Below, piece by piece: positions 10,108 to 63,623 of a stretch of DNA of 64,000 bases. A program made the translations under genes and the position numbers. The notes under the pieces were generated by a model, which ran no database searches, was not told the DNA's origin, and saw nothing but the letters and a program-made list of their open reading frames with translations. The stretch's first letter is position 1. Each line of letters begins with the position of its first letter. Source of the DNA: an uncultured Gammaproteobacteria bacterium (lineage in GTDB: Bacteria; Patescibacteriota; Microgenomatia; Levybacterales; UBA12049); NCBI GenBank assembly GCA_964515545.1, contig CAZERI010000001.1, forward strand, positions 2,803-66,802. Reading direction: 5' to 3'.

Positions 10108-12465
10108 CTATAATCTTGCTCTTTCGGAGATTTCTGCTTCGACTACTTGGACATTACGTCCATACTTCAGACGAGACAATTCTTTAACCAGCTCTGCCAC
10201 CCGCGGATCCTTCTGGGCTGCTTCAGCTGCAATGTCTTTAGTCGTATCAAGCGAGAATGGTGGTACAGGCTCTCCTCCAACAATTGTTCTCATATAGGCA
10301 TTGAAGCGATCAATATTAATAAGATCTGCCTCGCCGAAGATAGGCTGGAATTCATGAGCTAGGTAATTTGCATCTGTCACACCGACTCTAAATGAGGCTA
10401 TTGTTCCAACATTTCCAAAGATAGCATTCTTAACTTCCTCCTCCATCTGGCCTACGAACTGATTGGCAACGATTAAATTAAGGCGATACTTACGAGCCTC
10501 GGACAGAATCTGGGCGAAATCAGGCGTTGCGAAATTCTGAAATTCGTCTACATAAAGGAAAAAGTCCTTACGGTCTTCCATCGGCATATCCTGCCTACTC
10601 ATCGCAGCAACCAAGATTTTAGGAACTAGCACAAGTCCCAAAAAGCTGGAATTCTCTTCCCCAATTTTCCCTTTGGAAAGGTTAATAAGCAAAATCTTTT
10701 TTGTATCCATTGCTTCTCTGAAATTGAATGCACTCTCAGACTGGCCAATGATATTTCGGATCATTTTATTAGTAACGAACCGGCCAAACTTCGAGACGAT
10801 ATAATCAAGCACTTCTGATTTATGGAAATCTGAAGTCTGGGCAATCTGATCTGTCCAGTAACGCCTGATAACGGGATCTTCAACGCGGGGCAAGAGTTCT
10901 TGAACGAAGTTCTGATCAGTCAGAGCACGGACAACCTCCATAAAAGTAGCTCCTGGCTGATACATACAGGTTAGCATCGCATTACGCACTGCATGCTCAA
11001 AACGGGGACCGATAATTCCTGTCTTATTAGGGTCAAACAGCTTATACATCAGCCCTATCACTGAGGTAACAACCAAATGCTTCTGCTGCTCACTATGTGC
11101 TTCAAGCATATTAAAGCCTAAAGGCTGATCAAGATCTGATGGATCAAAAAGGATGACGTCCTCTGCTCTTTCAGGTGGCATAAGTTGAAGAATATCCTCG
11201 ATTAAGTCACCATGCGGATCAATTACGGCTAATCCTTGGCCATTTTTTATATCTTGGGTGATCATTTGTTTGAGAAATTCTGACTTTCCCGTACCTGTCT
11301 TGCCGATAATATACATATGCCTCTGTCTGTCTGAAGGACTGATAAAGACCGGCTTAGTCAAACCCCTAAAGACACTCTTCCCTAAATACAGTCCCTCAGT
11401 CGGAAGATTAGCAGGAGCCGGAGCTCTCTTTGAATTTACCCAATGAATTCCCGGAGTCTGAACACTCTTATTAGGGAAATGAAAGATAGTTGCCAGTTCA
11501 TCACTGGAGAGAACCGAAGTCTGCCCTCGCAGTGGAAAGTAACGATAAATAAAATCTGTGACAAAAAGGCCTTTAAACCAATGCCTGTTTTTATAAAATT
11601 TATTTACACCAGCATATTGGCCAAATGCATTAACCATATTGGTTAAATGCGCCTCCGCTGCTTCTTTTGTGCTTGAGGAAACGACGATACGGATTACTGT
11701 ATGGAAGCCAGGCTTACTCAACTTATTCTCAATCGCTTCTAATTCTTTTGCGTCTGAGGCATACGTTGCTTTTTCTGGATTGGACTCTGTTTTCTTTGTA
11801 TGAGAAAGGTATTCTCTCCCTTCGTGTTTCCAATGATTTCCAGCAGGTTCAATAAGCATTTGAATCGCAGCTCCCTCTCCTTCCCCCATCTTGGCAAGAA
11901 TTGAAGTTAAAGAGGCCATCCCATCAACTGCCAAATCTTTAAAAACCCGAATAGGCTTATACTCGCTTTCTTTAAGAGCCAATGAGGCAAAAGCCACCTT
12001 ACCTGTCTCAGAGAAGATATTGTACTCCCCTGCTATGGTATTGCCATCTTTTTGCTTGGCTGCCGGATCATTAACCTGAACAATTTCTGCATCGGGATAT
12101 GCTCCATTAATCTGTTTTTCCACAAAGTCCCTGATAGAGGCTGGAACATTGATATAAAATCTAATATCCCCCGGCATTCCGACGACCTCAAATGAAAGAT
12201 GAGTCTGATGCTTAAAATACTCTCGCTTCTTACTTTTATGGAGAGCTGCTAAACCGGCAAAAAGTTGTTCCGCTGCATCAATCTTAATTTCATTGTCCCG
12301 AGGTAGAGAAACCTGCAGAAGTACTGACGTTACAGAAATTTTCTCTCTATCTTTATTCCGAATCCATATAGTAAATACCTTAAAAAAACCAATACAAAAA
12401 AGAACTGTAAAGATAGTCCCAAAGACGATACTCATAAAAGCTGTTAATAATGATTGTGTATCCAT
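10108..12465 (-). CDS. type IV secretion coupling protein (VirD4/TraG/TraD-like T4CP ATPase)
   Basis: N-terminal TM segments, Walker A GKTGTGKS, DPHGD and Walker B VDEFQNF. Overall TraG/TrwB-like architecture, 785 aa. Its stop abuts the tRNA at 10106. Confidence 0.85.
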   Translation of the reverse strand: MDTQSLLTAFMSIVFGTIFTVLFCIGFFKVFTIWIRNKDREKISVTSVLLQVSLPRDNEIKIDAAEQLFAGLAALHKSKKREYFKHQTHLSFEVVGMPGDIRFYINVPASIRDFVEKQINGAYPDAEIVQVNDPAAKQKDGNTIAGEYNIFSETGKVAFASLALKESEYKPIRVFKDLAVDGMASLTSILAKMGEGEGAAIQMLIEPAGNHWKHEGREYLSHTKKTESNPEKATYASDAKELEAIENKLSKPGFHTVIRIVVSSSTKEAAEAHLTNMVNAFGQYAGVNKFYKNRHWFKGLFVTDFIYRYFPLRGQTSVLSSDELATIFHFPNKSVQTPGIHWVNSKRAPAPANLPTEGLYLGKSVFRGLTKPVFISPSDRQRHMYIIGKTGTGKSEFLKQMITQDIKNGQGLAVIDPHGDLIEDILQLMPPERAEDVILFDPSDLDQPLGFNMLEAHSEQQKHLVVTSVIGLMYKLFDPNKTGIIGPRFEHAVRNAMLTCMYQPGATFMEVVRALTDQNFVQELLPRVEDPVIRRYWTDQIAQTSDFHKSEVLDYIVSKFGRFVTNKMIRNIIGQSESAFNFREAMDTKKILLINLSKGKIGEENSSFLGLVLVPKILVAAMSRQDMPMEDRKDFFLYVDEFQNFATPDFAQILSEARKYRLNLIVANQFVGQMEEEVKNAIFGNVGTIASFRVGVTDANYLAHEFQPIFGEADLINIDRFNAYMRTIVGGEPVPPFSLDTTKDIAAEAAQKDPRVAELVKELSRLKYGRNVQVVEAEISERARL

Positions 12466-43028: not shown

Positions 43029-43037
43029 AAAAAACGT

Positions 43038-44066: not shown

Positions 44067-44150
44067 ACTTTTACTCTATAAGAGTAAAGCGTTCCGGTCA
44101 AGTCGTGCCTTGTTCTTGCTTTGGCTGATCTGATATACTTTGTATCCGTT

Positions 44151-44308: not shown

Positions 44309-46600
44309 ATGTCCTTTTCTGCCCGATTACTACGCTTTCTTTGTGCTTTTATTTTATTCATTGCAGTAGCTCCTCTACCAGCTTTTGCTCAATCCGTTCA
44401 AACGCCTTTTCAACAATCTGAACAGACCTCTAAACAAATTCAAGTAATCCTGGTAGGATTTAGTGGAACCGCAATTTGTGCATTATCAGGAATCGATATT
44501 TTCCATCCAGGCTATAACTGTCTTGGACAAAAGATAATTAAGGATGGAACTACTCCCTCCTCACAAATTAACACCCAGCCTCTGGGAGCACTTGGACTTC
44601 TAACCAGCGGGATAGGAGCTCTCTATCAAAAGCCATTTAGCACTGAAGATTCTGTAAAGTATTTTGCTAATAATTTCGGCATCGCTAAAAAAACGTTAGC
44701 CCAAGGCCAACCAAGCACTAATCCTCAGGATGGAACTACGGGAGGTTTTCAATCATTTTCATTCGTCCAAGATATGTTCTTAACGCTAAGAAACATCAGC
44801 TTCCTTTCACTTGTATTCGTTTTTATTTTAATAGGAATTGCTATTATGCTCCGTTTTAAGATCGATCCTCGTACAGTCATGAGTCTCCAAAATCAAATTC
44901 CAAAAATTATTATCGGCATTCTCATGATCACTTTCTCTTTCTCCATTGCAGGGATATTGGTTGATGGAATGTGGATTGTGACCTATTTTGGAATAAATAC
45001 CATAGGAAGTATCGCTCAAAAGGATTGCACTGATGGGACAGATGGAACTACATTTGCCGGAGTTGCCACTCGACAGATTTTAAATAACCCTGTCGCCTTT
45101 ACCTCACATGTCTTCTCTGATGCTGGATGCTTTGGCACTCTTAGTGGGATAGGTGGTATATCAAAAGATATAGGATCTGCTATGAGCTCGGGAATTACTG
45201 ATGCCATACTCACCTCACTCAACTTTGATAATCAATCTGACCTAAACTGCGGAACAGGTTTAAAAATTGGGATTTTAGGAGGAAGTGGAAGTATTGGAGA
45301 CTGTATCCAAAAAGGAATTTACAGCTTTCTAACCTGGCTTATAAGTATTGTTGCATTTCTTATCGTCCTTATCGCCATTTTTGTAGCCCTTATTAGACTA
45401 TGGATAACGTTAGTGAAAGCATATGTGTATATCATCCTTGATGTTATCACCGCACCCCTTCAAATTTTGGTTGGTATACTTCCTGGTGGAAAAATGGGAT
45501 TTGGCAAGTGGTTCCGCCATATTACCGGCTACCTTCTCCTCTTCCCTGCCAGTGCTATACTTATTTTCCTTGCTTTAGCTTTTGCTCTCAATCCTGGACT
45601 GAAAGATCCCTCAAATACCACCGATACGTTTTTCCCTCCATTAATTGGCGTACCTGGCACATCAGGCAATTTAGGGGTTCTTGTCGCTTTTGGTCTTATT
45701 ATGATCTTGCCCGAAGCACTTGAAATGATTAAAGAAGCTTTGCAGATTAAGAGTAATAGTAGAGTCTCATCAGCAATTGTCGGCGGATTTGGCCGTGGAG
45801 TCGGCCCTGCGCAAGCACTTGGAGGAGTAGGAAGCGGACTCTTCGGTAAGGATAAGAATGGCAATCCTCAAGTTGGAAGACTTATTGCGGGACGTATCTG
45901 GACAAATAAAATGGGTCCCCAATCTGCCATGGGGAATAAACGCCCTATGAGCTGGTATTATCGAACCCGACGAGATTTTGATGATCGTAAGCGAAGACTC
46001 ATTAATGAAGACAGAGGAAATATTAGACAGCAAGCTGAACAGTATGCACAACATCAAGCACTTTATAACGGGAGAGACCGTACCGAGGCATTTACCGAGT
46101 TTATGGATAAGCATTACTATCAGAGGCAGTCGTCTCACCAGGCTAATCAAGCCACGAATAATAATCCTAATCAGCACGCCAATGCTGCTACCCCTGGCGC
46201 AGGGGGTTCTCCAGCACCTTCTACGGGAAGTCATCCTCACGGAGGAACTTCTACAGGCGGACATGGAGGAGCAGCTTCTAGCGGTACTACCCATACTCCA
46301 TCAGGAGCTTCGGGTACATCTGCCACTGGACACACGTCTTCACCTCCTACAGAATCTCCTCCAGTCGGAGGAGCTACGCCGGGAGCAGGAGATAACTCTC
46401 CTATTGCCCGCTTAAAAGTCAAGTGGTTTGGAAATGATCTTAAGTTTGAAGATGGAACTGGTACAGTATTTGCCCAAAAATCAGGTACTAGCTATAAAGT
46501 AGAGACCCCTACATCAACTGGCATTACTACCAAGTATCTGAGTCGATCAGACTTTAATCGCTGGCTAAGTGATCACAACTACGAAGAAGTCACCGCTTAA
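44309..46600 (+). CDS. polytopic membrane protein, VirB6/TrbL-like T4SS channel component candidate with Gly/Ser/Thr-rich C-terminal tail
   Basis: Signal peptide, then at least 5 long hydrophobic segments (e.g. IYSFLTWLISIVAFLIVLIAIFVALIRLWITLVKAYVYIILDVITAPLQILVGILPG). C-terminal 250 aa low-complexity (GGTSTGGHGGAASSGTTHTPSGASGTS). Confidence 0.55.
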   Translation: MSFSARLLRFLCAFILFIAVAPLPAFAQSVQTPFQQSEQTSKQIQVILVGFSGTAICALSGIDIFHPGYNCLGQKIIKDGTTPSSQINTQPLGALGLLTSGIGALYQKPFSTEDSVKYFANNFGIAKKTLAQGQPSTNPQDGTTGGFQSFSFVQDMFLTLRNISFLSLVFVFILIGIAIMLRFKIDPRTVMSLQNQIPKIIIGILMITFSFSIAGILVDGMWIVTYFGINTIGSIAQKDCTDGTDGTTFAGVATRQILNNPVAFTSHVFSDAGCFGTLSGIGGISKDIGSAMSSGITDAILTSLNFDNQSDLNCGTGLKIGILGGSGSIGDCIQKGIYSFLTWLISIVAFLIVLIAIFVALIRLWITLVKAYVYIILDVITAPLQILVGILPGGKMGFGKWFRHITGYLLLFPASAILIFLALAFALNPGLKDPSNTTDTFFPPLIGVPGTSGNLGVLVAFGLIMILPEALEMIKEALQIKSNSRVSSAIVGGFGRGVGPAQALGGVGSGLFGKDKNGNPQVGRLIAGRIWTNKMGPQSAMGNKRPMSWYYRTRRDFDDRKRRLINEDRGNIRQQAEQYAQHQALYNGRDRTEAFTEFMDKHYYQRQSSHQANQATNNNPNQHANAATPGAGGSPAPSTGSHPHGGTSTGGHGGAASSGTTHTPSGASGTSATGHTSSPPTESPPVGGATPGAGDNSPIARLKVKWFGNDLKFEDGTGTVFAQKSGTSYKVETPTSTGITTKYLSRSDFNRWLSDHNYEEVTA

Positions 46601-46613: not shown

Positions 46614-49388
46614 TTATTTAAGACTTTTTAAGAGGGCTTTAAAGAAGTTCTTCCCTGTACTTGCCGTCGTTTTAGCAACAGCTATTCCTCCATCTCTAAA
46701 GCCACGTCGCACCTCACCAACATTGGCGATACTGCGAAGCCACTTAATATCTTCTCTCGTAAAGAAGCGTCCTGGGATCACGGTATTTTTGAGATCATTT
46801 TCATCTACTAAAAGATCTCCTGGTATGATTTCAAGCGCCCTGATAACAGCCTCTATAGTCGCTCCATCCCATTTAGGATAGGGGCTATTGTGGTCGATAT
46901 GAGAATAAATATCTGCTGCTACTCTTCCTAAGGCTATTTGTTTGAACATCTGAATTCTTCCTTTATCTGTGTCTATTAGACGTGGATCTACGACATGATT
47001 GAGGACTTTCCCTGTCGGATTCCCATCTTTATCCTTTATTTCCTTACCATCCTTATCATACTGAGGCAGACGCATCCAGAACTGCTCCCGATCAATAAGC
47101 TCATGTCCGAACATAGAATCAGCAAGTGACATATCTGCAAATACATGAGGCGTACCATTCACATCAACCTGAGGAAGACCTTGATGGATCTTAGGATCAT
47201 ACTCAACGATATCTCTGACTTGCTTGCTATAAAGATTAGGCCACCCCTGATATCCATAACGGAGAGGCTTAAGGAATCCTTCCTGAATTTTTTGACCAAA
47301 AGATGCTGGATCGTAGAGTATCCCTCCAAATCGAGCCTGTTCAACTATTTTATCCAAATGCAACTCATCTGCTCCGATGAAGGACTTATATTCCTGTACC
47401 CAGCGAAAAATACCATTGTTGTAAAGGTTGACTTCACTCAGATCAGGGAATGTCAATTCACTAAGGATACGTCTGGATTCAGCAGTCTCTTCCTCAACCT
47501 TTCGCTCTTCAGCCTCTGTAAGAGTTCCCATACCATTTCTCTCATCAATTTCAAGTGCTGGAGGAGTAATACGGGCTAAATCTTCAATAATTTCGCGAAC
47601 TAGCTTCCCATCCTGATTACGAATCGAATCCAGGTAATTTACTCCCAACGTCTTAATGAGGCCGACATTGTACATGTTCCCAAACATCCCACCCTTGCTA
47701 GGGCCAGCTAATTTTTTCCGGTAATTTTGGAAACGAAGCCATTTCGCTTGAGCATCATAAGCAGTTCCTCCTAAATCGTTACGAGTTGCAATTCCTGTCC
47801 AGCGAGTTGTCAAAAATGCATAGTCTTCTGCCATCTCAGTGGTGTCTGTATCCATCACAAAGCCTCCATTCTCACGGAGGTATTCCCCATCTTTACCCCT
47901 CAGATACATGTGATACTTATGACCGATAGCGTCTTGGATCAGTCCCCGTACCATTCCTCTTACACGAGGATCTACCTGAGCTTGAGGGAAGATATTCATA
48001 TACTTAATGAATGCTTCTCTATTTTTTACTTTGCCGTCAGGGCCGAATATCGTATCTAAATTCGCATTAGAGATATATTTTTCCTCCAGGTGACCGAGAC
48101 TTTCTCCTGAAAATCTATTAGATTCATTTTCCTTACCAGCCAAATGTGAACGCACTCTTTCAAAGCCTTTTCGGGTAAAGAAGTCTGAATTCCCGCCTAT
48201 CATCTCTTGAAGCTTTTCATAATCTGCTAAGTGATAATATGCAGCGATAGCCGTAGCGATACTTTGTCCCATTCGGGTATCCTGCTTCTTATAATCTCTT
48301 ACATATTTTCTGTGCTCATGATGCCCCTCGCCTTCATGTCCCTGATGGGCTTGGAGAGTCTCTCCTTCATGAAGCGGTGGATCAAGTTTGGCTTTAGCCT
48401 CCATTGGCATTTCCAAAAGCCAATGCCACATACTTTTCCCATTCCAAGTATTACGAGTCATATTGTTGTCTTTGAAAATAGACTGCATCACTCCGTCTAT
48501 TCCGCCCTCATCACTCATACCCTTTCCACCTGTTCGGTAGGTAATATCACGACCGCGTACGATCATACGGACGAATAATTCACGACGAATTTGTTGGGCA
48601 AGCTCGGCATGAACTGCTCCATCCTGATCAGTAAAGAACTTCTCATCATCTTCGAGGATCTGACTCATGTGAATATGTCTATTACCAAAAGGGATACCTA
48701 CTTTAGCAAAGTAGTTGACTGGAGTATCTGGGCCATCCTCTCCCTCAAAAAAGACCATACGCTTACGAATCCAGCGCAGGAAATTAGCTTCATTAATGAC
48801 TGTTCTTTCACGTTCTTTTCCATCCTCATCTATATAAGTGCCTTCTTTTTTAAAAAGCGGGAACTTGTCCTGGAACTCCGGCTCATACTCAGCAATTGAA
48901 CGTACCAGCTCATTAATAGTATTTGGCTGCCTGTAAGATTTGTTTAGCTCCTTACGTTCTTTTGAGGTTAATTCATCATCATCTGCTAATGCTCTTCTTG
49001 GGTCTATAAACTGTCTATGGAGAGACTCAGGAGATTGTGCTCCAGAAGAAGCAGGATTTTCTAAGCGGGGTTCTACAAGACTTTGAAGAATTCTATTTCT
49101 TAGGAGTGCTTGTTCCTGAGGAGTAAGTTCACGACCAAGGTTTGCTTCCTGAGCAGCTCTCTCCTGACTCATGATCACATCAAGCATCTGCCTCATATTC
49201 TCCGTAGCTGGCTGTGGAGTAGACGGTGCTGCGCCTGTTAATTCATCAATTTCCCATGCGGGAATCTCTGGTGTAGGACTACTTGATGCCATAAATTCTC
49301 CTGTACCACTAGCATACGATCTATGAGGCTGTGAAGTCAACGCATCCCCCTCCCCTGGGACAAAGTTGTGAGGTCTATATTCTTTCAT
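46614..49388 (-). CDS. large (924 aa) soluble protein of unknown function
   Basis: Long ORF with coding-like composition, no TM and no motif I can assign. His-rich patch HQGHEGEGHHEHRK. Downstream of, and co-oriented with, the ATPase-wHTH gene. Confidence 0.65.
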   Translation of the reverse strand: MKEYRPHNFVPGEGDALTSQPHRSYASGTGEFMASSSPTPEIPAWEIDELTGAAPSTPQPATENMRQMLDVIMSQERAAQEANLGRELTPQEQALLRNRILQSLVEPRLENPASSGAQSPESLHRQFIDPRRALADDDELTSKERKELNKSYRQPNTINELVRSIAEYEPEFQDKFPLFKKEGTYIDEDGKERERTVINEANFLRWIRKRMVFFEGEDGPDTPVNYFAKVGIPFGNRHIHMSQILEDDEKFFTDQDGAVHAELAQQIRRELFVRMIVRGRDITYRTGGKGMSDEGGIDGVMQSIFKDNNMTRNTWNGKSMWHWLLEMPMEAKAKLDPPLHEGETLQAHQGHEGEGHHEHRKYVRDYKKQDTRMGQSIATAIAAYYHLADYEKLQEMIGGNSDFFTRKGFERVRSHLAGKENESNRFSGESLGHLEEKYISNANLDTIFGPDGKVKNREAFIKYMNIFPQAQVDPRVRGMVRGLIQDAIGHKYHMYLRGKDGEYLRENGGFVMDTDTTEMAEDYAFLTTRWTGIATRNDLGGTAYDAQAKWLRFQNYRKKLAGPSKGGMFGNMYNVGLIKTLGVNYLDSIRNQDGKLVREIIEDLARITPPALEIDERNGMGTLTEAEERKVEEETAESRRILSELTFPDLSEVNLYNNGIFRWVQEYKSFIGADELHLDKIVEQARFGGILYDPASFGQKIQEGFLKPLRYGYQGWPNLYSKQVRDIVEYDPKIHQGLPQVDVNGTPHVFADMSLADSMFGHELIDREQFWMRLPQYDKDGKEIKDKDGNPTGKVLNHVVDPRLIDTDKGRIQMFKQIALGRVAADIYSHIDHNSPYPKWDGATIEAVIRALEIIPGDLLVDENDLKNTVIPGRFFTREDIKWLRSIANVGEVRRGFRDGGIAVAKTTASTGKNFFKALLKSLK

Positions 49389-49457
49389 GGCCAGAGTATA
49401 TGGCCAGAAGCATCCTAGTCCTTGAGAAAATCCTTATAAAATCCTTTTAGAGCGCCT

Positions 49458-50771
49458 TTACTGACTAAATTTTACGCCTCTTCCTTTAAGAGTATGGAGA
49501 AAATGAGGATGAGTGGGGTTACTTTCTATTTTTCTTCTTAGTCTAAAAAGAAGCTGATCTATCGCCTGATCTGAAATCCCTTCACTTGATTTATCTTCTT
49601 TCCAAACGATATGGATGATAGTCTCTCTGTCTACTACCTCTCCGACGTGCTGGAGCAGATAACGGAAAAGTCTAAATTCCCCCTTCGTTAGATCATCTGA
49701 GAACACTACCTCTCCCCGCTTAATGGTATTGGTAGCCTCATCATAGACGAACTTAGCCTGATTTTGGCTGAATAGCCCTGCCTCTATGGCATCTTTAAAA
49801 AGAGGGAGGCAAAGCGTATTAGCCTTTACAAGACCTACTGCTTCTAAGTAAGGATTAGTACTAAAATCACCAGCCATGATGCTGGCCTGCTCCGAAGGAC
49901 TTAATTCCTGCCAAAGACTGATAAGTGCTGTCTGAAGTGTTTTTTGATTGAGTAAGAATTTAGATATATTATCCGGCATCTCCGAAAGGGTGATGAGTGC
50001 TTCAAGCGAAACAATTAAAAGCCTCATATGTCCTCCTGTTACATATATCAACTCTTCCTTTACTCGCTGGGGAACTTTCTTACCCACTAACTTCTCCAGA
50101 TAGCTAATCCGAAATTCACTACTCTCTCTGTCTAGTAGCGGAAGATAAATAGTATGTCCTACTACAAAGTCACTAAAAATAGATATGATCTGTGGTTCAA
50201 GCGTCTCCTCAAGTGGTCTTGCAACTGAAAAAATAGCTGCAAAACGATACTTAGCCTTATCTTGAAGTGAGCGGAGGAGGATAAAAAAACGGTCATTTAC
50301 CTGAGGAATATAATCATCGAAATTCTGGCAGAGAAAAATTACTGTTAACTTTTTTTCAATTGCCAAATACTCAATCGTATTTTTGAGATACTGAGCATAG
50401 ACCAGCTCATCGTTATAGGAAAGAGCATCTTTGAAAAGAGCGTCTGTTTTTTCATATTCTTCACTCATCTCCCGCTCGCGAAGAGAATTTAAAAGACACA
50501 AAAAAATATACTTCAAGATATCAGGATATGATCTTTGTCTTACTTCAGAAAAGTTAATCATGACAAAATGGACGATGCCATGATATTTAGGGAAATGCCT
50601 CAGCCTTACTGCCTTGTTATAAGCCAAAAGTCCTAATATATTTGATCTTCCCACCCCAGGCAGGCCAATGAGTTGAGAGGAATTCCCTTCTTTAATAAAG
50701 CTAACTGTCTTTTCAAGTTCGTTATCCCAGCTTTCCTCAGGATAAAGTGACTCGAAGTATTTTACTTCCAT
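49458..50771 (-). CDS. one-component regulator: N-terminal STAND/AAA-like P-loop NTPase fused to C-terminal OmpR/PhoB-type winged-helix DNA-binding domain
   Basis: P-loop IGLPGVGRSNILGLL. C-terminus LTKGEFRLFRYLLQHVGEVVDRETIIHIVWK...DQLLFRLRRKIE...LHTLKGRGVKF matches Trans_reg_C. Confidence 0.7.
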   Translation of the reverse strand: MEVKYFESLYPEESWDNELEKTVSFIKEGNSSQLIGLPGVGRSNILGLLAYNKAVRLRHFPKYHGIVHFVMINFSEVRQRSYPDILKYIFLCLLNSLREREMSEEYEKTDALFKDALSYNDELVYAQYLKNTIEYLAIEKKLTVIFLCQNFDDYIPQVNDRFFILLRSLQDKAKYRFAAIFSVARPLEETLEPQIISIFSDFVVGHTIYLPLLDRESSEFRISYLEKLVGKKVPQRVKEELIYVTGGHMRLLIVSLEALITLSEMPDNISKFLLNQKTLQTALISLWQELSPSEQASIMAGDFSTNPYLEAVGLVKANTLCLPLFKDAIEAGLFSQNQAKFVYDEATNTIKRGEVVFSDDLTKGEFRLFRYLLQHVGEVVDRETIIHIVWKEDKSSEGISDQAIDQLLFRLRRKIESNPTHPHFLHTLKGRGVKFSQ

Positions 50772-50849
50772 ACATAACTATTGTATGGCATCCTCCTAGG
50801 ATGTTCAAACCAACTTGCAAAGTAATCTCAAGCTATCTACTATGAATAT

Positions 50850-52760
50850 ATGCGCAAAGTTCTACTTTTATTGGTCTCCCTTTTCTTTAGCATTATTTAT
50901 CTTACTAACTCTACTATTGCAGAAGCAGATTCAGTCACAGTAGGCGACAATGCTACACTCACGTCGACCTTCCCCCTGTTTGATAATAATAAGGTTGTCA
51001 GCGACGTAGAGTTTGTCATAAATACATCATCTGACGGTAGTGGTACAGATCTTGACACAATCCGTTATCTTATTGGTGGAGATGGTTGTAAATTGCAGAA
51101 TTCAGAAACTCAAAATTTTAGCAATCTCAAATGCTATTTTAATAAAAGATACGCTCCTGATACCCAAGTTACGATTCAGCAAGATTTCCAAACAGGCTCA
51201 CTAACCCCCGACTCCTTCCCTACAACCTATTATTATTTTGTACGCAAGACAAATGGAGGACCTTATAGCCAAGTCATACCTCTAACCCTTAATCAACCTT
51301 CCGATGTTGCAAAAATCAACCTATCTGCATCAGGAGCTGTATGGGGCAAAAAGGGAACAATTACTCTAGGCAATCTCCCTAAGGCATTTTCTCAACAAAA
51401 AGCTACTATTACTATCCACCGAAACGCTGGCGGAATGGATGATAAGCACTTCTCAGTATTTGTCAACGGCGATAAGGAGAAGAGCAAGGCTATCTGCTCC
51501 AGTCCTTCAGGAGATGACATCTTTGCCTTTAATGATAAAGACTGTTCAGACGGTAAGTTTGTTGTTGATGTCAATTATCTGGTCTCTGTATTCCCACAGC
51601 CCGCAACAGTAGTTAATATCCCTGTTCCTCAAGCATCACTTCAGGATACCTATACACTCTCTCTTGCAGGACCTAATACTGCATCTACTACTCTCGTTGT
51701 ATTATATAGTCCAACTGGTGTAACTCTGGAGGCTAGTCAAACTTCGGTGACTACTGGGACAAAAGTTTCATTTACCGCAAGTGGTTGCCCTGATGGATCA
51801 AAGATTGATTTTGCTTATGGATCTGATACCTCAACAAAAGATGTCAAAGATGGTAAGGCAACTTTTGAAAAGACATTGGAGGGACAAGGCGGTGAAGCTT
51901 TTTCAGTTACTGCTACCTGCCAGGCAACCGGCAGAAGGTCAAATACTGTCTCTGTAACAATAGATAAGCCAGGTGAGGAAAGAACAGAAATTGATCCTCC
52001 TCTTCCTATCGCTGCTGATACCCCCTTCACCATCATTGTTCATGGTATGGAAAGTGATGGGCAATGCTACTTTATCGAAATAAAAGATGTGAACGCTGAT
52101 AAATATCTTGATCCTGGAAATAGGGACGCTCTCCTGGGGGGGGATTGTAGTAGTGGAGTAGATGATGGAGGCAAAAATCCCGCTTCAGTCACTCTCGGAG
52201 GGACAGCTCACCATACTGAGCAATTATATGACCTCTTTAAGTCCAATAATGATACTTATACTGTAACTTTTGATAAAGGTCTCCCTGATGGGGCATATCA
52301 ATTCAGACTTTATACATCCAACAAAGGGACCAGCCCCTGCTGGCCATATGACTGCCGAAATGAGGCTGATGACCCTCATCACTCTGCCGACCTTGATTTT
52401 ATTATTGGGAATGGGGAGTTTACAGCAATTGCTGCTCCCTCTCCTGCTTGCGGAGAGACCAACGACGTCGGAGAATGTACCTCTGTAAATACGGCTATCG
52501 GCCCGCTCCCAATCCAACTCTCAGAATTTACTAAGACTATTTTTTCTGTCCTTCTTAGTATCTCAGGCATTATCATACTCTACATTGTCATTCGTTCTGG
52601 CTATATCCTCCTCTTCTCCCAAGGAAATGCTGAGAAAGTAAAAGAAGCGCAAGATAGACTAACCTCTGCTGTTGTTGGCCTCCTCTTTCTCATCTTCTCC
52701 CTCATTGTCCTCCAGACTATAGGTGTTGATATACTCCATATACCTGGATTCGGCGCATGA
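50850..52760 (+). CDS. large secreted protein with C-terminal VirB2/TrbC-like pilin domain (pilin-fused adhesin/minor pilin candidate)
   Basis: Signal peptide. About 540-aa extracellular Cys-containing region. The C-terminus TIFSVLLSISGIIILYIVIRSGYILLFSQGNAEKVKEAQDRLTSAVVGLLFLIFSLIVLQTIG is homologous to the downstream pilin paralogs. Confidence 0.65.
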   Translation: MRKVLLLLVSLFFSIIYLTNSTIAEADSVTVGDNATLTSTFPLFDNNKVVSDVEFVINTSSDGSGTDLDTIRYLIGGDGCKLQNSETQNFSNLKCYFNKRYAPDTQVTIQQDFQTGSLTPDSFPTTYYYFVRKTNGGPYSQVIPLTLNQPSDVAKINLSASGAVWGKKGTITLGNLPKAFSQQKATITIHRNAGGMDDKHFSVFVNGDKEKSKAICSSPSGDDIFAFNDKDCSDGKFVVDVNYLVSVFPQPATVVNIPVPQASLQDTYTLSLAGPNTASTTLVVLYSPTGVTLEASQTSVTTGTKVSFTASGCPDGSKIDFAYGSDTSTKDVKDGKATFEKTLEGQGGEAFSVTATCQATGRRSNTVSVTIDKPGEERTEIDPPLPIAADTPFTIIVHGMESDGQCYFIEIKDVNADKYLDPGNRDALLGGDCSSGVDDGGKNPASVTLGGTAHHTEQLYDLFKSNNDTYTVTFDKGLPDGAYQFRLYTSNKGTSPCWPYDCRNEADDPHHSADLDFIIGNGEFTAIAAPSPACGETNDVGECTSVNTAIGPLPIQLSEFTKTIFSVLLSISGIIILYIVIRSGYILLFSQGNAEKVKEAQDRLTSAVVGLLFLIFSLIVLQTIGVDILHIPGFGA

Positions 52761-53086
52761 AAGACTTACTAGCACTTACTATTGGGACTACCCCTATTGA
52801 GGCCCCTAATGGAATCCCTACAGGAGGCCTGCCAAAAGCCTATGATATCGGCTCAAGTATCCTTCTGCTTATCTTTGTCGTTGCCATCCTCCTAGCCCTT
52901 GCTTTTATCATCTGGGGGAGTATCAGATGGATTATGTCAGGAGGAGATAAAACCAAAGTTCAAAGCGCCCGCAATACGCTTATTTATGCTGTGGTAGGGC
53001 TTATTTTTATTTTCCTTTCTTTCCTTATCATCAACCTCATCACGTACTTCTTCAACGTTCCTTCTGTCACTACTTTACCCCAGTAA
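52757..53086 (+). CDS. VirB2/TrbC-like T4SS pilin paralog 1
   Basis: Two hydrophobic helices separated by IWGSIRWIMSGGDKTKVQSARNTLIYAVVGL. Overlaps the upstream stop. Confidence 0.6.
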   Translation: MKDLLALTIGTTPIEAPNGIPTGGLPKAYDIGSSILLLIFVVAILLALAFIIWGSIRWIMSGGDKTKVQSARNTLIYAVVGLIFIFLSFLIINLITYFFNVPSVTTLPQ

Positions 53087-53131
53087 ATTTGCCTATTGAC
53101 AACTCTTTTAGACTCTGCCTAATATAGATAT

Positions 53132-53551
53132 ATGTTAAACAAATTGAAATCTACCACAGGTCTTACAGCTCTTGCTTTTGCTGCTTCTACTGCTGTGCCG
53201 ATGCTTGCTTCTGCAGCTACATATGATCTTTGTCCTAGAAAATCAGGCGGAGACTTTAGTGTACTCTGTAATCTTAACTTTAACGGTACGTTTGGCAATA
53301 TCATCACTATTGTCTTTATCGTTGCTATTATCCTCGCTCTTGCTTATCTTATCTGGGGTGGTATCAAATGGGTCCTCTCAGGTGGTGACAAAGCTAAAGT
53401 GGATGCTGCCCGTCAGGCAATCGTCGCTGCTATTGTAGGGCTTGTAATCGTCTTTTTGGCCTACTTTATCATTAATATCGTTGTCCCTATCTTTGTCCCT
53501 AATTTTAGCCTACAAACCCTTTCTCTCCCTACTATCAACCAGCAGCAGTAA
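53132..53551 (+). CDS. VirB2/TrbC-like T4SS pilin paralog 2
   Basis: Signal peptide (AVPMLASAAT), then IITIVFIVAIILALAYLIWGGIKWVLSGGDKAKVDAARQAIVAAIVGLVIVFLAYFIINIVV. Confidence 0.65.
   Translation: MLNKLKSTTGLTALAFAASTAVPMLASAATYDLCPRKSGGDFSVLCNLNFNGTFGNIITIVFIVAIILALAYLIWGGIKWVLSGGDKAKVDAARQAIVAAIVGLVIVFLAYFIINIVVPIFVPNFSLQTLSLPTINQQQ
53287..53436. repeat. 150-bp tract identical to 54134..54283 (pilin core, copy A)
   Basis: Read directly: TACGTTTGGCAATATCATCACTATTGTC...GCAATCGTCGCTGCTATTGT is identical in both copies. Flanks are diverged, about 85 percent downstream and unrelated upstream. Confidence 0.9.
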
Positions 53552-53606
53552 TCTTCTGAGAAATCTTTTGTCTTGTTATTCTTTTTGTATTTGTTACTAT
53601 TAATAT

Positions 53607-53933
53607 ATGTTTCATGATTGGGAAGGCTGTCTAGCAGGGCCTGACAATACAATTCCTACTATCCAGTGTGTTTTCCCTCTTTTTCAAAACATCGTTTCAG
53701 CTGCTTTGCTATTAGGAGGAGTAACTGCGCTTATTTTCCTTATCTGGGGTGGATTCAAGCTTCTGAGATCCCAAGGCGACCAAAAGCAAGTCCAGGGAGC
53801 CCGCCAGACGATAACCTATGCTCTTATTGGGCTTATCCTTATCTTCCTCTCATTCTTTATCATAAATACCATAGCCACTCTTACTGGCTTTGAATGTATA
53901 AAGACACTAAGTAGCTTCCAGGACTGTAAATAA
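53607..53933 (+). CDS. VirB2/TrbC-like T4SS pilin paralog 3
   Basis: LLLGGVTALIFLIWGGFKLLRSQGDQKQVQGARQTITYALIGLILIFLSFFIINTI. Confidence 0.6.
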   Translation: MFHDWEGCLAGPDNTIPTIQCVFPLFQNIVSAALLLGGVTALIFLIWGGFKLLRSQGDQKQVQGARQTITYALIGLILIFLSFFIINTIATLTGFECIKTLSSFQDCK

Positions 53934-53945
53934 GAGCTAGGTTAC

Positions 53946-54473
53946 TTGACAAGCCCCTCTGCCTCCACCTATCATGGACTCATGCTTAAGAAAGCATTAT
54001 CCTTTATTGGATTCTCCGGCTTTATTGGTATCCTTTCTGGCATACTGCCTCTGCCTGCTCTAGCTGGGATTTGTCCTACCAGTACTGGAGGGGCGAACTT
54101 TAGCGGACTTTGTAACCTCAGTTTCTCTGGTAATACGTTTGGCAATATCATCACTATTGTCTTTATCGTTGCTATTATCCTCGCTCTTGCTTATCTTATC
54201 TGGGGTGGTATCAAATGGGTCCTCTCAGGTGGTGACAAAGCTAAAGTGGATGCTGCCCGTCAGGCAATCGTCGCTGCTATTGTGGGGCTTATCTTTGTTT
54301 TCCTGTCCTACTTTATCATCAATATCGTTGTGCCTATCTTTGTCCCTGGCTTCTCCCTGCAAAAGCTTTCCTTGCCAACTATTAATGGGGACGGCGGAGA
54401 CCATAGTAGCGATCCACTTGAATGTTCAAGGGCCGGAGGATCTTGGGACTCATCTACAAATACCTGTAACTAA
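53946..54473 (+). CDS. VirB2/TrbC-like T4SS pilin paralog 4 with extra C-terminal Cys-containing extension
   Basis: The core is identical at protein and DNA level to paralog 2. Unique N-terminal region and C-terminal tail DGGDHSSDPLECSRAGGSWDSSTNTCN. Confidence 0.65.
   Translation: MTSPSASTYHGLMLKKALSFIGFSGFIGILSGILPLPALAGICPTSTGGANFSGLCNLSFSGNTFGNIITIVFIVAIILALAYLIWGGIKWVLSGGDKAKVDAARQAIVAAIVGLIFVFLSYFIINIVVPIFVPGFSLQKLSLPTINGDGGDHSSDPLECSRAGGSWDSSTNTCN
54134..54283. repeat. 150-bp tract identical to 53287..53436 (pilin core, copy B)
   Basis: Same as above. Even the spurious antisense/alternate-frame ORFs (53172.. and 54139..) share identical peptides. Confidence 0.9.
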
Positions 54474-54486
54474 TATCTTCCATAGC

Positions 54487-54855
54487 TTAGCTATTAGCTA
54501 CCTGCTTTTCAGTCATTACCTGCTGTAATTGTCCACGAATACTTGAAAGATTAGTCTGAGGATCTCCTATCACTGTGTGCTCCAACTTCTCCATTTCCAT
54601 CTTTGTCTGCTCTTTTATAGTTTTATAAAAGGCTTCATCGACATTCGTCTCAGGAGGAAGCTTGTCTATAGCCATCTGCACATTGCGTTGATAGTGAAGT
54701 GAGAAAATCGAGTCATAAAGACCTCGGATAATTGCCTCAATGGCTGCTGATCGTTCCAGGTCAAGGGTAGGCAGTACTCTCAGGAGATCTGCCTTATAAA
54801 GGGTATCAAAAGGAAGTGTCTTGATGATATCTTCGAGCTTGAGATTGCTATCCAT
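54487..54855 (-). CDS. small cytoplasmic protein, member of a local two-gene paralog pair, unknown function
   Basis: 122 aa. IIKTLPFDTLYKADLL...IRGLYDSIFSLHYQRNVQMAIDK is paralogous to the next gene. Confidence 0.5.
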   Translation of the reverse strand: MDSNLKLEDIIKTLPFDTLYKADLLRVLPTLDLERSAAIEAIIRGLYDSIFSLHYQRNVQMAIDKLPPETNVDEAFYKTIKEQTKMEMEKLEHTVIGDPQTNLSSIRGQLQQVMTEKQVANS

Positions 54856-54876
54856 ATATTTATCCAGCTGTGGAGA

Positions 54877-55236
54877 TTAGTGAGTAGCTGGAGACTTTTT
54901 TTGCAAAATTTGATCTATCTTAGATCTAGCATCAGATAAATCTACTGAGATAGTAGTATCTACAAATTCGCTAAGCAGATCCTGCTCTGTCTTCTCTTTA
55001 ACTTTTTTATAGAAATCTTTTGTTAAAGGGTTGTCTTTATCATTACTCTTCTCCATTTCAAGACGAATATTCTCTTGGAGTTTTAGCTCATATAATCCAT
55101 CATATAAGTCCCAAATAACGCGCTCTATTGAGAACTTCTGATCAGGATCAAGATTATCAAATGAACCCATCAGGCTTTCCTTAAATTCATTATCAAAAGG
55201 GAGAATCTTTATAATATTTTTAGTCGTTAATTCCAT
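54877..55236 (-). CDS. small cytoplasmic protein, paralog of 54487..54855
   Basis: MELTTKNIIKILPFDNEFKESL...VIWDLYDGLYELKLQENIRLEMEK. Start 2 nt after the stop of the 972-aa gene (coupled). Confidence 0.5.
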   Translation of the reverse strand: MELTTKNIIKILPFDNEFKESLMGSFDNLDPDQKFSIERVIWDLYDGLYELKLQENIRLEMEKSNDKDNPLTKDFYKKVKEKTEQDLLSEFVDTTISVDLSDARSKIDQILQKKSPATH

Positions 55237-55237
55237 A

Positions 55238-59647: not shown

Positions 59648-60868
59648 ATGGAAAATCATCCTATCCCACAAGATGTAACAGGATTTCAGTTTAAGCTTAT
59701 CGGCAATATGACGGTAAAGCAGTTTGCCTACTTAGCAGCTGGAGGAGTCATTGCCGTCCTCTTTTACTATCTGCCTGTTTTTATTCTCCTTAAGCTGGTA
59801 ATCATGGTCTTAGGCGGAGGGTTAGGGGCTGCCCTTGCCTTTCTTCCTGTTGAGGGACGTCCACTAGATCTTATGATTACCAATTTCATTCGAGATCTCT
59901 TTGCCCCCACTCAATATATGTACCATAAAGAGGGAGGCATGCTGGCTATTTCCATGATTTCTCTCACACCACCCAAACCCGAAAAAAAAACTACCTCTCA
60001 AAAAAAGAAAACTGAAGATAAGCAGTTTGAACGCGAGGTTAAACTTAATGAGTTTCTTAGTCATTTAGCAAAAAGTGCCCACACTAAATTAGATGAGAGA
60101 GAAGATCTGTACTTATCGGCTATCTTTAACCCTAATGCTACTCCGCAGTTAGTCTCTCTTTTTGAACAAAAGGCAGCTGCCGGACACGAGTTATCAGACG
60201 AGGAAGCTCTCCGCGTGAAGATGATCCAGTCCCCTGAGGATATGGAGCATCAGCTGGAGAGAGAATCCGAAGCTATCAAACAGGAACTTGCCTTAGCGGT
60301 AAAAGAAGAACAAACACTTCAAGAGAAGCACCAATCAACTGCTGAGGTGCATGTCCATGTCGGAGATCTGGAAAAACAACTCCAAGACATGCTCCAACAG
60401 AAGCAGCAGCTCGAACAGGAACTTTTAAAGCTGAAAGGACAACAGCCAGTAAATCCTCCTCAAAACCAAGAAACACCCTCTCAGAAGCCTGCTACTCAGG
60501 ATTCCCAAAATGTACGCGTTGTTCCCACTGACAAAGCATCCAGCATCGGACTTCCTGCAGTGCCTGATGTTCCTAATATCGTCCTAGGAATTGTTAAAGA
60601 TCCAAGGGGAAATGTTCTCTCGGGAATTCTCGTTGAGATTCGTGATAAAGACGGCAGTCCCGTCCGCGCATTTAAGACAAATGGTCTTGGCCAATTTGCC
60701 TCAGCCACCCCCCTGAGTAATGGAGTCTATACAGTAGAATTTGAAGACCCTAAAGGCAAGCAGCAATTTGAAGTCGTACAAATTGAAGCGAAAGGAGAGA
60801 TAATGCTGCCTCTTGAGATTATTTCTCATGACGCCAGAGAGCAACTAAGAAAAGAGCTTTTTAACTAA
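59648..60868 (+). CDS. membrane protein with N-terminal 2-TM domain (VirB3/PrgI-like position and topology), central coiled coil and C-terminal beta domain
   Basis: FKLIGNMTVKQFAYLAAGGVIAVLFYYLPVFILLKLVIMVLGGGLGAALAFLPV. Located two genes upstream of virB4. Confidence 0.5.
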   Translation: MENHPIPQDVTGFQFKLIGNMTVKQFAYLAAGGVIAVLFYYLPVFILLKLVIMVLGGGLGAALAFLPVEGRPLDLMITNFIRDLFAPTQYMYHKEGGMLAISMISLTPPKPEKKTTSQKKKTEDKQFEREVKLNEFLSHLAKSAHTKLDEREDLYLSAIFNPNATPQLVSLFEQKAAAGHELSDEEALRVKMIQSPEDMEHQLERESEAIKQELALAVKEEQTLQEKHQSTAEVHVHVGDLEKQLQDMLQQKQQLEQELLKLKGQQPVNPPQNQETPSQKPATQDSQNVRVVPTDKASSIGLPAVPDVPNIVLGIVKDPRGNVLSGILVEIRDKDGSPVRAFKTNGLGQFASATPLSNGVYTVEFEDPKGKQQFEVVQIEAKGEIMLPLEIISHDAREQLRKELFN

Positions 60869-61535: not shown

Positions 61536-63623
61536 ATGGGATTATTTAATAAAAAACAGCCAGTACCTCAGCCAGCAGCCCAGACTGGAACACCTGCTGT
61601 GCCTTCCACCCAACCGACAGCAGCCTCGAGTGTTAAAGCAACAAAAAGTTCTACACCTCAGGCAAATGGTATTCAAAAACTTGAGAAGGGCATGATGTCA
61701 CTTGTTGATCTCATTGCTCCTTCCTCAGTTGAGGTAGATTTCCGTTACATCAGGGTGGGAGAGAAATTTTATTCGACATTGTTTATCGTCGGCTATCCCC
61801 GTTTTGTCTCACCAAACTGGCTGCAGCCTATTATTGACTACGACCATACGTTGGATATCTCCATGTTTTGTTATCCTACTCAATCAGGGGATGTTCTCTC
61901 AGATCTCCGGCGTAAAATTGCTGAGATGGAAGCAACCATTATGTCTGATGAGGAGAATGGCAAACCAGCTAATCCTACTGTCCAAGCAGCACTTGAGGAC
62001 GCTCTGGCTCTCCAGGAAGAATTAGCAAAAGGTGTAGAGAGATTTTTTCAGTTTAGCTTCTATATCAACCTCTCAGCAGATAGTGTCGGTGAGTTAGAGG
62101 AAGCAACCAAGCAACTCCGGACAACTCTCGCCTCTCTTCTTCTCACAGCCAAGACAGCTACACTCCAGATGGAAGAGGGCTTTAAATCAAGTATTCCTAT
62201 GGCCCAGGATCGCCTTTTTATTACCAGAAATATGGATACTACTTCCCTTGCCTCAACTTTCCCTTTCACATCCGCTGTACTGACACAAAATAAGGGCGTG
62301 ATGTATGGAGTCAACCAGCAGAATGGCTCTCTTATTATCTTTGATCGTTTCTCCCTAGAGAACGCCAATGAGGTAGTACTCGGTAAATCTGGAGCCGGAA
62401 AATCTTATCTTATTAAGCTTGAGATCATGCGTCAATTTATGTTAGGAACTGAGGTTATTGTGGTAGATCCAGAAGGTGAGTATGAGACATTGGTGGGAGA
62501 ATTAGGTGGAGAGATCGTAGAATTCTCATCTGCCTCCCCTATCAAAATTAATCCTTTTGATCTCTCTCAACTCTATGAACCAGGAGAAAATGAATTAGGG
62601 CTTAAGATTCTCTCTCTCCATGGACTCATGAAACTAATTATGGGAACCTTAGATGCTGAACACGATGCAATCCTTGATAGAGCGTTAGTTGAGACATATC
62701 ATCAGAAAGGCATTACCCCCGATCCTGCTACTCAAAAACTAACTCCACCACTTCTTGAGGATCTTTATAAGACTCTTCTCGGTATGGAGACTCAAGCAGG
62801 TAAAGAAATGGCATTTCAGCTTGAAAAATTTATTAAAGGAAGTGCCTCAGGTATTTTTAACCAAGCCTCAAATTTCGATATCACAAATCCCTTAACTGTA
62901 TTTAATATTAAAAATCTTGAGGAAGAGTTACGCCCTATTGCCATGCATATTATTCTTGATTTCGTCTGGACAAAGGTTAAGAAATCTCTTAAAAAGCGAC
63001 TCCTCGTTTTAGACGAAGCGTGGTATATGATGAAGTTTGAAGACTCAGCTTCATTTGTCTACTCTATTGCCAAGAGAGCACGTAAATATTACTTGGGACT
63101 TACTACCGCGACACAAGACGTAGAAGACTTCCTCAAAACGGATTATGGTAAAGCAGTTCTTACTAATTCATCTATCCAAATTCTTCTTAAGCAGGGAACT
63201 GCTGAGGTTGATTTAGTGGGAGAAACCTTTTACTTATCAGAAGGCGAGCGTGAACTCCTCCTTTCTGCGGATATTGGAGAAGGACTCTTCTTTGCCGGAC
63301 AAAATCACGTAGCACTCAAGGTACTTGGTGCCCCATTTGAACATGATCTTATTACTTCCAACCCAGAGGAGCTTATCCATAATCAGCAGCCTCTCTCTCA
63401 AGAGGTGCAGACTCCCGTGCCTGAAACTACTCTCCCTGATGGAATTCCAGACAATACGACTCCACCCCTACCTGTCCCTGATCAGTCAGTACCTGTAGCA
63501 GCACCGGAAACTCCTGCTACGCCTGCTGCTCCTCCATCATCAAACGTATCAGGAGAGACTCCGCCTCCAGCCAACAACCCTTCCTTAAATGGAATTCCTA
63601 CCCCTTCAAATCAGGTTCAATAA
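61536..63623 (+). CDS. virB4: type IV secretion ATPase VirB4/TrbE family
   Basis: Walker A VVLGKSGAGKSYLIK, VVVDPEGEY, Walker B LLVLDEAWYMM, RKYYLGLTTATQ. 695 aa with PT-rich C-tail. Confidence 0.9.
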   Translation: MGLFNKKQPVPQPAAQTGTPAVPSTQPTAASSVKATKSSTPQANGIQKLEKGMMSLVDLIAPSSVEVDFRYIRVGEKFYSTLFIVGYPRFVSPNWLQPIIDYDHTLDISMFCYPTQSGDVLSDLRRKIAEMEATIMSDEENGKPANPTVQAALEDALALQEELAKGVERFFQFSFYINLSADSVGELEEATKQLRTTLASLLLTAKTATLQMEEGFKSSIPMAQDRLFITRNMDTTSLASTFPFTSAVLTQNKGVMYGVNQQNGSLIIFDRFSLENANEVVLGKSGAGKSYLIKLEIMRQFMLGTEVIVVDPEGEYETLVGELGGEIVEFSSASPIKINPFDLSQLYEPGENELGLKILSLHGLMKLIMGTLDAEHDAILDRALVETYHQKGITPDPATQKLTPPLLEDLYKTLLGMETQAGKEMAFQLEKFIKGSASGIFNQASNFDITNPLTVFNIKNLEEELRPIAMHIILDFVWTKVKKSLKKRLLVLDEAWYMMKFEDSASFVYSIAKRARKYYLGLTTATQDVEDFLKTDYGKAVLTNSSIQILLKQGTAEVDLVGETFYLSEGERELLLSADIGEGLFFAGQNHVALKVLGAPFEHDLITSNPEELIHNQQPLSQEVQTPVPETTLPDGIPDNTTPPLPVPDQSVPVAAPETPATPAAPPSSNVSGETPPPANNPSLNGIPTPSNQVQ

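Follow-up and report, generated by a model that had tools for sequence, protein, structure and literature searches.

A putative modular pilin with a replaceable ectodomain in a type IV secretion locus of Patescibacteria

Introduction

Can a pilin of a type IV secretion system (T4SS) carry a large extracellular domain, and what might such a domain do? The question is raised by pil1, a gene for a 636-residue protein in a 64,000-nucleotide stretch of contig CAZERI010000001.1 (assembly GCA_964515545.1), referred to below as the window. An original prediction, made from the letters of this DNA, described the product as a secreted protein ending in a complete VirB2-like pilin domain that resembles four pilins encoded just downstream (pil2 to pil5), and suggested that it could enter a pilus as a tip adhesin or minor pilin. 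Classical pilins of the TrbC/VirB2/TraA type are small, their mature forms measuring ~7-10 kDa and some being cyclised or acetylated; TrbC and VirB2 polymerise with phospholipid into an extracellular conjugative pilus, and to our knowledge no natural large N-terminal ectodomain occurs on pilins of this type. VirB2-like pilin arrays are known in Patescibacteria and are essential in Southlakia (Wang et al., 2023, PMC10633639). A survey of 3,035 genomes spoke of the 'small size' of the pilin and detected no adhesin for the T4SSs of Patescibacteria (Quinonero-Coronel et al., 2025, PMC12102498). Here we examine the homology, gene neighbourhood, distribution and variability of pil1, and propose that it is probably a modular pilin.

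Results

The pil1 open reading frame (ORF) runs from ATG to TGA on the plus strand (50850-52760). Four independent assemblies (L001-L004) encode this same 636-residue protein, so the ORF is not an artefact of assembly or of a frameshift. Exactly three hydrophobic segments were found by hydropathy analysis (residues 1-24, ~559-592 and ~602-633), with none between residues 25 and 558; the ~530 residues that separate them are hydrophilic and rich in T/D/G/S, and their 12 cysteines fall into six local pairs, roughly one pair per 100 residues. The N-terminus (MRKVLLLL...AEA/DS) is likely a Sec-type signal cleaved after AEA26, a site placed by the A-x-A rule. The predicted mature protein of ~610 residues is unlike the classical TrbC/VirB2 subunit, which is small (about 70-100 residues) and free of extra domains. 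At 52757 the TGA stop codon of pil1 overlaps the ATG of pil2 (ATGA), through which the two genes appear to be translationally coupled.

Homology and orthology show the C-terminus of this protein to be a true pilin module with stand-alone pilins as its orthologues. Residues 557-623 match positions 5-70 of the 71 in Pfam family PF18895, T4SS_pilin (E 7.9e-5); the score of 23.1 bits falls slightly short of the 26.6-bit gathering cut-off. Fused orthologues lie above that cut-off (L043, 33.1; L027, 30.9; L018, 32.1; L060, 34.7; L074, 33.4 bits), and PF18895 is present in the precomputed annotation of P0002. A profile built from the four downstream ORFs, all of which pass the cut-off, aligns with residues 564-624 of pil1 (hhalign probability 92.6%, E 4.5e-7). 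Homology and orthology together support membership of PF18895 despite the score. The architecture of the family, a signal peptide and two hydrophobic helices joined by a short charged loop, is found in pil1, where AlphaFold2 models place the helices at residues 559-589 and 594-623 on either side of the loop SQGNAEKVKEAQDR. The likeness to the downstream pilins proposed in the original prediction thus withstood profile alignment, and the fallback it had named, a generic C-terminal transmembrane (TM) anchor, was not upheld, given the PF18895 match and the orthology to stand-alone pilins. The signal-like segment and the near-full-length family match also bear out its description of a secreted-type protein ending in a complete pilin domain. 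Its extents had to be redrawn: the conserved module and neck together take up ~105 residues (530-636) rather than 65, and the part before the neck, which does contain cysteines as predicted, has ~500 rather than 540.

A search with the C-terminal 89 residues identified stand-alone PF18895 pilins of 115-136 residues as the nearest relatives, with 50-56% identity over 97-99% of the query; one more match was a 68-residue fragment (63% over 76%). On the contigs of P0152 and P0160, the two that were inspected, the short pilin stands first in its array, directly after the same Trans_reg_C regulator as in the window and upstream of PrgI, TraC-like and VirB4 genes. Short pil1 proteins consist of a signal peptide, the motif C-x(n)-C-x-VNTAIGP, a first TM helix (TM1), the loop SQGNPEKVKEARERLTSA, a second helix (TM2) and the tail ILHIPGF (alignment A4). 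From residue ~530 on, the 636-residue protein keeps this whole plan and every invariant position in it, including loop SQGN-EKVK and tail ILHIPGF; what sets it apart is a stretch of ~500 residues inserted after the signal peptide and before the Cys loop. The neck motif of the fused protein is, in its stand-alone orthologues, the mature N-terminus. Fused pil1 had no match to TrbC (PF04956) in the Pfam scan. No type IV pilin family was among its Pfam and NCBIfam hits, nor was VirB5 at E up to 1, and a profile made from the pil1 alignment brought up nothing meaningful among PDB sequences.

The ~500-residue ectodomain, judged by sequence comparison, is swapped wholesale between close relatives. 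When 5.8 billion clusters were searched with the full-length protein, only pil1 itself and P0002 were found, the latter a 626-residue protein, 65% identical, on a fully syntenic contig; a four-sequence ectodomain profile run against the same clusters likewise returned only these two. The locus L010 is also syntenic with the window, and its neighbouring proteins are 60-74% identical to those of the window, except for a truncated homologue of the 924-residue protein (43%). Its pil1 (P0113, 442 residues) aligned with ours only over residues 489-634 (66% identity), and the distal 460 residues of pil1 had no detectable similarity to P0113. Between the same two loci, blastn found ~70% identity over 49287-50817 and 52483-56263 and nothing over 50818-52482. 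Because DNA homology stops at these borders and the proteins mismatch in the same region, we regard the ectodomain as a replaceable cassette. Another locus, L092, has a head of the L010 type (84% identical to P0113), and L093 carries a third, unrelated ectodomain on a 73% identical module; modules that are 73-89% identical in close relatives thus bear three unrelated distal ectodomains. The membrane-proximal 40-70 residues before the neck are conserved across the different cassette types.

Within one cassette type, divergence is mosaic. Identity between pil1 and P0002 is 30-43% over residues 31-150, 73-97% over a core at 151-390, 30-37% over 421-510 and 97-100% over 571-636. More distantly, L043 and L027 (662-671 residues) encode weak full-length relatives with 24-25% identity (alignment A5), in which eight of the Cys positions of pil1 are kept, and most pairs of ectodomains between species have no similarity at all. 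Template and variable repeats of a diversity-generating retroelement were looked for, and no direct repeat in the 64-kb window touches 50850-52760; we therefore rejected such an element, or other repeat-driven variation, as the source of the diversity. No ectodomain paralogue was found in the window by tblastn, and pil1 has no internal repeats.

Scans of pil1 with Pfam and NCBIfam, and of ten other extended pilins with Pfam, revealed no family in any ectodomain. The fusion therefore never appears as a named domain combination. Two AlphaFold2 models, both poor (mean pLDDT, the per-residue confidence score, of 40.2 from one sequence and 43.4 from two), have beta strands throughout residues 27-550 and a helical hairpin at the C-terminus, with an immunoglobulin (Ig)-like unit of modest confidence at residues 290-360 (pLDDT 62-79). 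Foldseek comparison with the PDB gave generic strings of Ig and fibronectin type III domains at TM-scores below 0.2, which is suggestive only. On these weak models, combined with the spacing of one Cys pair per ~100 residues, the ectodomain probably comprises about five beta-sandwich domains in a row. Strings of this sort are typical of adhesin stalks. Of the Ig-like or lectin-like folds that the original prediction had in mind, the models hint, at low confidence, at the former.

How common is the extended form? A pil1 profile located 80 species-representative loci, in which we counted as extended any module-bearing ORF of 190 residues or longer. At least 51 of the 80 contain one, and a signal-like N-terminus is present in 74 of the 83 extended pilin ORFs of those loci. 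Pil1 reaches 196 residues or more in 23 of 26 Levybacteria-type loci, Roizmanbacteria-type loci have one extended pilin (244-553 residues) beside the gene for a hydrophobic membrane protein, and Magasanikbacteria arrays have several extended members. A separate metagenome scan recovered pil1 ORFs of 179-486 residues, and an exhaustive profile search of 1.84 billion representatives gave 59,047 matches at E up to 1e-3. Fused orthologues occur in P0002, L043, L027 and dozens of other genomes. The search for such fusions elsewhere, proposed in the original prediction, thus succeeded, and its remark that no description of them came to mind agrees with the literature: the open-access papers and bioRxiv preprints searched yielded no description of extended PF18895 pilins. 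The architecture is common in sequence databases and apparently undescribed.

The same searches brought up another arrangement. Among the 150 best of the 59,047 matches, 135 (in the series P0003-P0151) carry 2-12 pilin modules in one polypeptide, and HMMER counts reach 17. P0003 consists of a signal peptide and six modules joined by linkers of 10-30 residues, P0111 combines an S/N/Q- and Cys-rich ectodomain of ~500 residues with four modules, and P0020 and P0068 are further examples; other multi-module pilins have C-terminal non-pilin extensions of 200-570 residues. Such tandem 'poly-pilins' of the PF18895 family seem to be undescribed in the literature searched. As to taxonomy, the loci nearest to that of the window among species-level genomes are labelled Levyibacteriota, Shapiro-, Roizman-, Gottesman- and Magasanikbacteria. 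Typical Patescibacteria T4SS/pilin loci, several of the nearest ones among them, are also found in many metagenome-assembled genomes that GenBank titles 'uncultured Gammaproteobacteria' or 'Pseudomonadales bacterium' (L012, L014, L015, L018, L026, L029 and others), and these labels look wrong.

The place of pil1 in its array was defined by assigning each pilin module in 26 syntenic loci to its best-matching paralogue in the window. The array resolves into four ordered orthogroups, pil1-pil2-pil3/5-pil4. A pil1 comes first in all 26 loci and varies between 128 and 671 residues; pil2-4 measure 62-188 residues, or 97-188 when one apparently truncated ORF is left out. Since the window has no separate short pil1, the fused protein, its sole pil1 orthologue, must fill the pil1 role. 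Among the downstream pilins, pil3 matches TrbC (PF04956) over nearly its full length (E 7.5e-4), at 20.1 bits, under the cut-off of 27.9. A 252-nt direct repeat, 90% identical, is shared by pil3 (53287-53538) and pil5 (54134-54385) and points to a recent duplication or gene conversion inside the array; the five-gene layout is the same in L010.

A conserved order of regulator, pil1-pil4, PrgI, TraC-like protein and VirB4 recurs with synteny in more than 20 loci, and in the window the last three genes lie 7-11 kb downstream of pil1 on the same strand (Table 1). The VirB4 is 64-70% identical to that of Levybacteria-type loci, and with the labels of the nearest loci this makes a Levybacteria-like member of Microgenomatia the most likely source of the DNA. 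The window is chromosomal DNA, with genes for GMP synthase, adenylosuccinate synthetase, GAPDH, ribonucleotide reductase, two class A penicillin-binding proteins and nine tRNAs. Among the window ORFs scanned with Pfam, an incomplete search for relaxases, none was found, and not one of 72,556 plasmids matched pil3 in a tblastn search. By its gene content the locus is a monoderm-type chromosomal T4SS of the kind described for Patescibacteria.

Table 1. Features of pil1 and of the surrounding T4SS locus (coordinates of the window)
Feature	Coordinates	Strand	Basis
pil1, putative modular pilin gene, 636 aa	50850..52760	+	ORF list, junction sequence, four assemblies
Predicted Sec-type signal peptide, aa 1-26, MRKVLLLLVSLFFSIIYLTNSTIAEA / DS	50850..50927	+	Sequence, hydropathy
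Ectodomain, aa 27-529, predicted all-beta, T/D/G/S-rich, 10 Cys in five local pairs	50928..52436	+	Low-confidence secondary structure; identity; Cys positions
Neck, aa 530-556, Cys loop and motif PSPAC-x8-C-TSVNTAIGP	52437..52517	+	Alignment A4, motif scan
Pilin module, aa 557-636: TM1, loop SQGNAEKVKEAQDR, TM2, tail GVDILHIPGFGA	52518..52757	+	PF18895, hhalign, predicted helices, hydropathy
Replaceable cassette, without DNA similarity to L010; both flanks ~70% identical	50818..52482		blastn, protein comparison
pil2, 109-aa pilin	52757..53086	+	PF18895 33 bits; orthogroup analysis
pil3, 139-aa pilin	53132..53551	+	PF18895 32.9 bits; TrbC PF04956 E 7.5e-4
pil4, 108-aa pilin	53607..53933	+	PF18895 40.9 bits
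pil5, paralogue of pil3; likely start ATG at 53982	53946..54473	+	PF18895; 252-nt repeat
Regulator, 437 aa, divergent from pil1; N-terminal P-loop-like motif (by eye), C-terminal OmpR/PhoB-type Trans_reg_C	49458..50771	-	Pfam, synteny
PrgI (VirB3-like) with CarboxypepD_reg-like domain	59648..60868	+	Pfam
TraC-like protein, 219 aa	60875..61534	+	Weak Pfam match; PF26593 on orthologues
VirB4-type ATPase	61536..63623	+	PF19044 E 2.6e-26
Hydrophobic protein, 763 aa (hydrophobic stretches seen by eye)	44309..46600	+	No Pfam/NCBIfam match; BLAST homologues beside pilins
Coupling-protein-like ATPase (TrwB / T4SS-DNA_transf), 40 kb from pilin array	10108..12465	-	Pfam

Several other features of the region deserve mention. 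A Trans_reg_C regulator of 430-500 residues always abuts pil1 (window, L006, L008, L010, L012, L013, L027, L043), and its orientation flips by lineage: it is read away from pil1 in the window, L010, L013, L027 and L043, and in the same direction as pil1 in L006, L008, L012 and L015. The 763-residue hydrophobic protein, which is conserved next to pilin genes in many loci, is, by inference, a candidate VirB6 analogue. No family match was obtained for proteins of 924 (46614-49388, minus strand) and 972 residues (55238-58156, minus), a paralogous pair of ~120 residues (54487-55287, minus) or a protein of 452 residues (58172-59530, plus), all within the T4SS locus. Homologues of the first three kinds are present in L010, where the 452-residue protein has none, and the P0002 contig has ORFs that correspond in size and order. 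These proteins are possibly components or substrates of the T4SS that are peculiar to the lineage. A cluster of six tRNA genes (four Ser, two Arg) at 42183-44240 lies immediately upstream of the gene for the T4SS-associated membrane protein, and a tRNA-Ile gene with anticodon TAT (10035-10108) adjoins the coupling-protein gene. The two class A penicillin-binding proteins, each with transglycosylase and transpeptidase domains (26177-28336 and 29501-31726), are encoded 1.2 kb apart and have a 53-nt repeat in common (77% identity). Two neighbouring genes, 22844-23563 and 23565-25022, the latter for a Laminin_G_3/concanavalin-like secreted protein, contain degenerate 12/18-nt periodic repeats (23279-23421 and 24648-24790) that specify Pro/Thr-rich linkers.

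Discussion

What, then, is the 636-residue protein for? We favour the view that pil1 is a modular pilin, a minor or tip subunit whose fast-evolving adhesin is presented on the outside of the cell, and consider it probable, because the module is extremely conserved, all pil1 motifs are kept, the protein is the sole pil1 orthologue of its array, its gene overlaps pil2 at an ATGA junction, and its distal part behaves as a cassette. In VirB2, TraA and TrbC both termini lie outside the membrane, on the filament exterior, and the loop between the helices is cytoplasmic or luminal, so an N-terminal addition to the module would be exposed. As the first member of an ordered PF18895 array, pil1 would have its ectodomain set behind the signal peptide and ahead of the N-terminus of the mature pilin. 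Sec export and cleavage of the signal would leave this ectodomain outside the membrane, and the TM1-loop-TM2 hairpin would anchor the protein with its positively charged loop in the cytoplasm. The intact module could then allow entry into the pil2-pil4 assembly, be it a pilus or an extracellular extension of the channel, as a minor or tip subunit. From there a beta-rich, disulfide-braced N-terminal stalk and its distal head might project outwards and bind a target on a host bacterium, and exchange of the distal cassette between close relatives would retune specificity. The idea of a minor pilin or tip adhesin in the original prediction thus gains from the sole orthologue, the outward topology and the hypervariable cassette; its incorporation into a filament, its position there and its adhesive function are what we infer.

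Several observations weigh against this view. No pilus of PF18895 proteins has been observed, and reviews treat a patescibacterial T4SS pilus as a possibility. VirB2-type filaments pack tightly, and the tip or a few scattered sites are presumably the only places that could accommodate a 55-kDa N-terminal load. A profile of 112 modules aligned with Agrobacterium tumefaciens VirB2 in a topologically sensible way at an hhalign probability of 1.1%, which is not significant, so that the label 'VirB2-like' rests on the PF18895 family and its published annotation. The ectodomain contains no binding domain recognisable in the family scans, its models are poor, and its Foldseek matches are generic; its hypervariability could, moreover, reflect relaxed constraint or evasion of immunity or phages rather than host specificity. 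The steric load disfavours incorporation into a shaft, and with the lack of evidence for a filament from any PF18895 protein it speaks for a membrane-anchored surface protein, in which the pilin hairpin would be a mere bitopic anchor, perhaps docking beside the T4SS, and the beta-rich stalk would span the wall without polymerising with pil2-4, holding out an adhesin or some other surface function from the cell body. The topology from hydropathy is equally compatible with this, and some five segments of Ig size could be long enough to cross a monoderm envelope. We nevertheless hold such an anchor to be unlikely, if well short of negligible, since a module that is 97-100% identical to that of P0002, beside an ectodomain that falls to 30%, is conserved beyond what an anchor needs. 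Its loop SQGN-EKVK and tail ILHIPGF retain all invariant pil1 positions, and both its standing as the only pil1 orthologue in an array of conserved order and its apparent coupling to pil2 argue in the same direction.

It is also conceivable that the ectodomain is cut off at or near the neck and released as a soluble protein, leaving a short pil1 in the membrane, in which case the fusion would serve the co-expression and co-export of a cargo. The neck does correspond to the mature N-terminus of stand-alone pil1, right after their signal-peptide cleavage site, and classical VirB2, TraA and TrbC are made with long leaders that are then processed. Such a pro-protein strikes us as improbable: hydropathy shows no second signal-peptidase-like hydrophobic segment before the neck, no protease domain or conserved cleavage motif was found upstream of the Cys loop across the extended pil1 proteins, and the conservation of the 40-70 residues before the neck across cassette types fits a stalk better than a discarded pro-region. 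That the protein is a product of mis-assembly or of a frameshift, or a generic two-helix anchor with chance similarity to pilins, is scarcely credible. This explanation has in its favour the PF18895 score of the protein, just short of the cut-off; it is opposed by the identical ORF in four independent assemblies, by the dozens of fused orthologues, by the hhalign result (E 4.5e-7) and by the 50-56% identity to stand-alone pil1 pilins.

How does a modular pil1 compare with systems already described? It shares with the published PF18895 arrays of Patescibacteria the Pfam family, a monoderm-type T4SS (VirB4, PrgI, TraC-like/TrsD) and tandem divergent pilins. Unlike the small proteins of those reports, the first member here has a hypervariable ectodomain of ~500 residues, and the array consists of four ordered, conserved orthogroups of which only pil1 varies in length. 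With classical TrbC/VirB2/TraA (PF04956) it has in common a leader, two hydrophobic helices, a short charged loop and a gene beside VirB3 and VirB4 homologues. In functional terms, the closest analogy is with modular type IV pilins such as PilB and PilC of the monoderm Streptococcus sanguinis, minor pilins in which a pilin module is likewise fused to a bulky adhesive module (PMC8179133, PMC9934059). Those proteins belong to an unrelated filament superfamily and have a class III signal peptide, a single N-terminal helix and the extra module at the C-terminus, whereas pil1 has a Sec-type signal, carries its extra module N-terminally and has a two-helix hairpin at the C-terminal end; the relation is one of analogy and not of membership. 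The role proposed for pil1 recalls that of VirB5, a minor component of the pilus tip for contact with the target. VirB5, however, is soluble and helical and docks on VirB2 as a protein of its own; it has no sequence relationship to pil1, whose candidate adhesin is covalently part of the pilin. To judge from their mention in the survey (PMC12102498), the Bartonella Trw and Anaplasma VirB2/VirB5 paralogues also comprise several divergent pilins per locus, read as adaptation to host surfaces; there the variation lies in how many paralogues a locus has and in point divergence among small pilins, in pil1 in the exchange of a large cassette.

In summary, pil1 is probably a widespread and apparently undescribed host-recognition head on a secretion-system pilin. 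A pilin conserved throughout except for one large, exposed and variable cassette offers a concrete candidate for a determinant of host specificity. In the one patescibacterium that is genetically tractable, epibiotic life requires both the T4SS and its array of pilins (PMC10633639). We would go further only tentatively: pil1 may be the missing adhesin of the essential patescibacterial T4SS, located at the filament tip or channel mouth, with cassette exchange setting the host to which the cell attaches and from which it feeds. PF18895 dominates freshwater-specific structure clusters (10.1101/2025.04.23.650224), a dominance that a swappable pil1 ectodomain would explain. The finding would also extend the principle of the modular pilin from type IV pili to the unrelated VirB2-type family, and pil1 would be the first member of that family in nature to have a large domain fused to it. 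If this is true, a logic like that of phage receptor-binding proteins would operate on the pilin of a secretion system, providing Patescibacteria with interchangeable heads for the recognition of their hosts.

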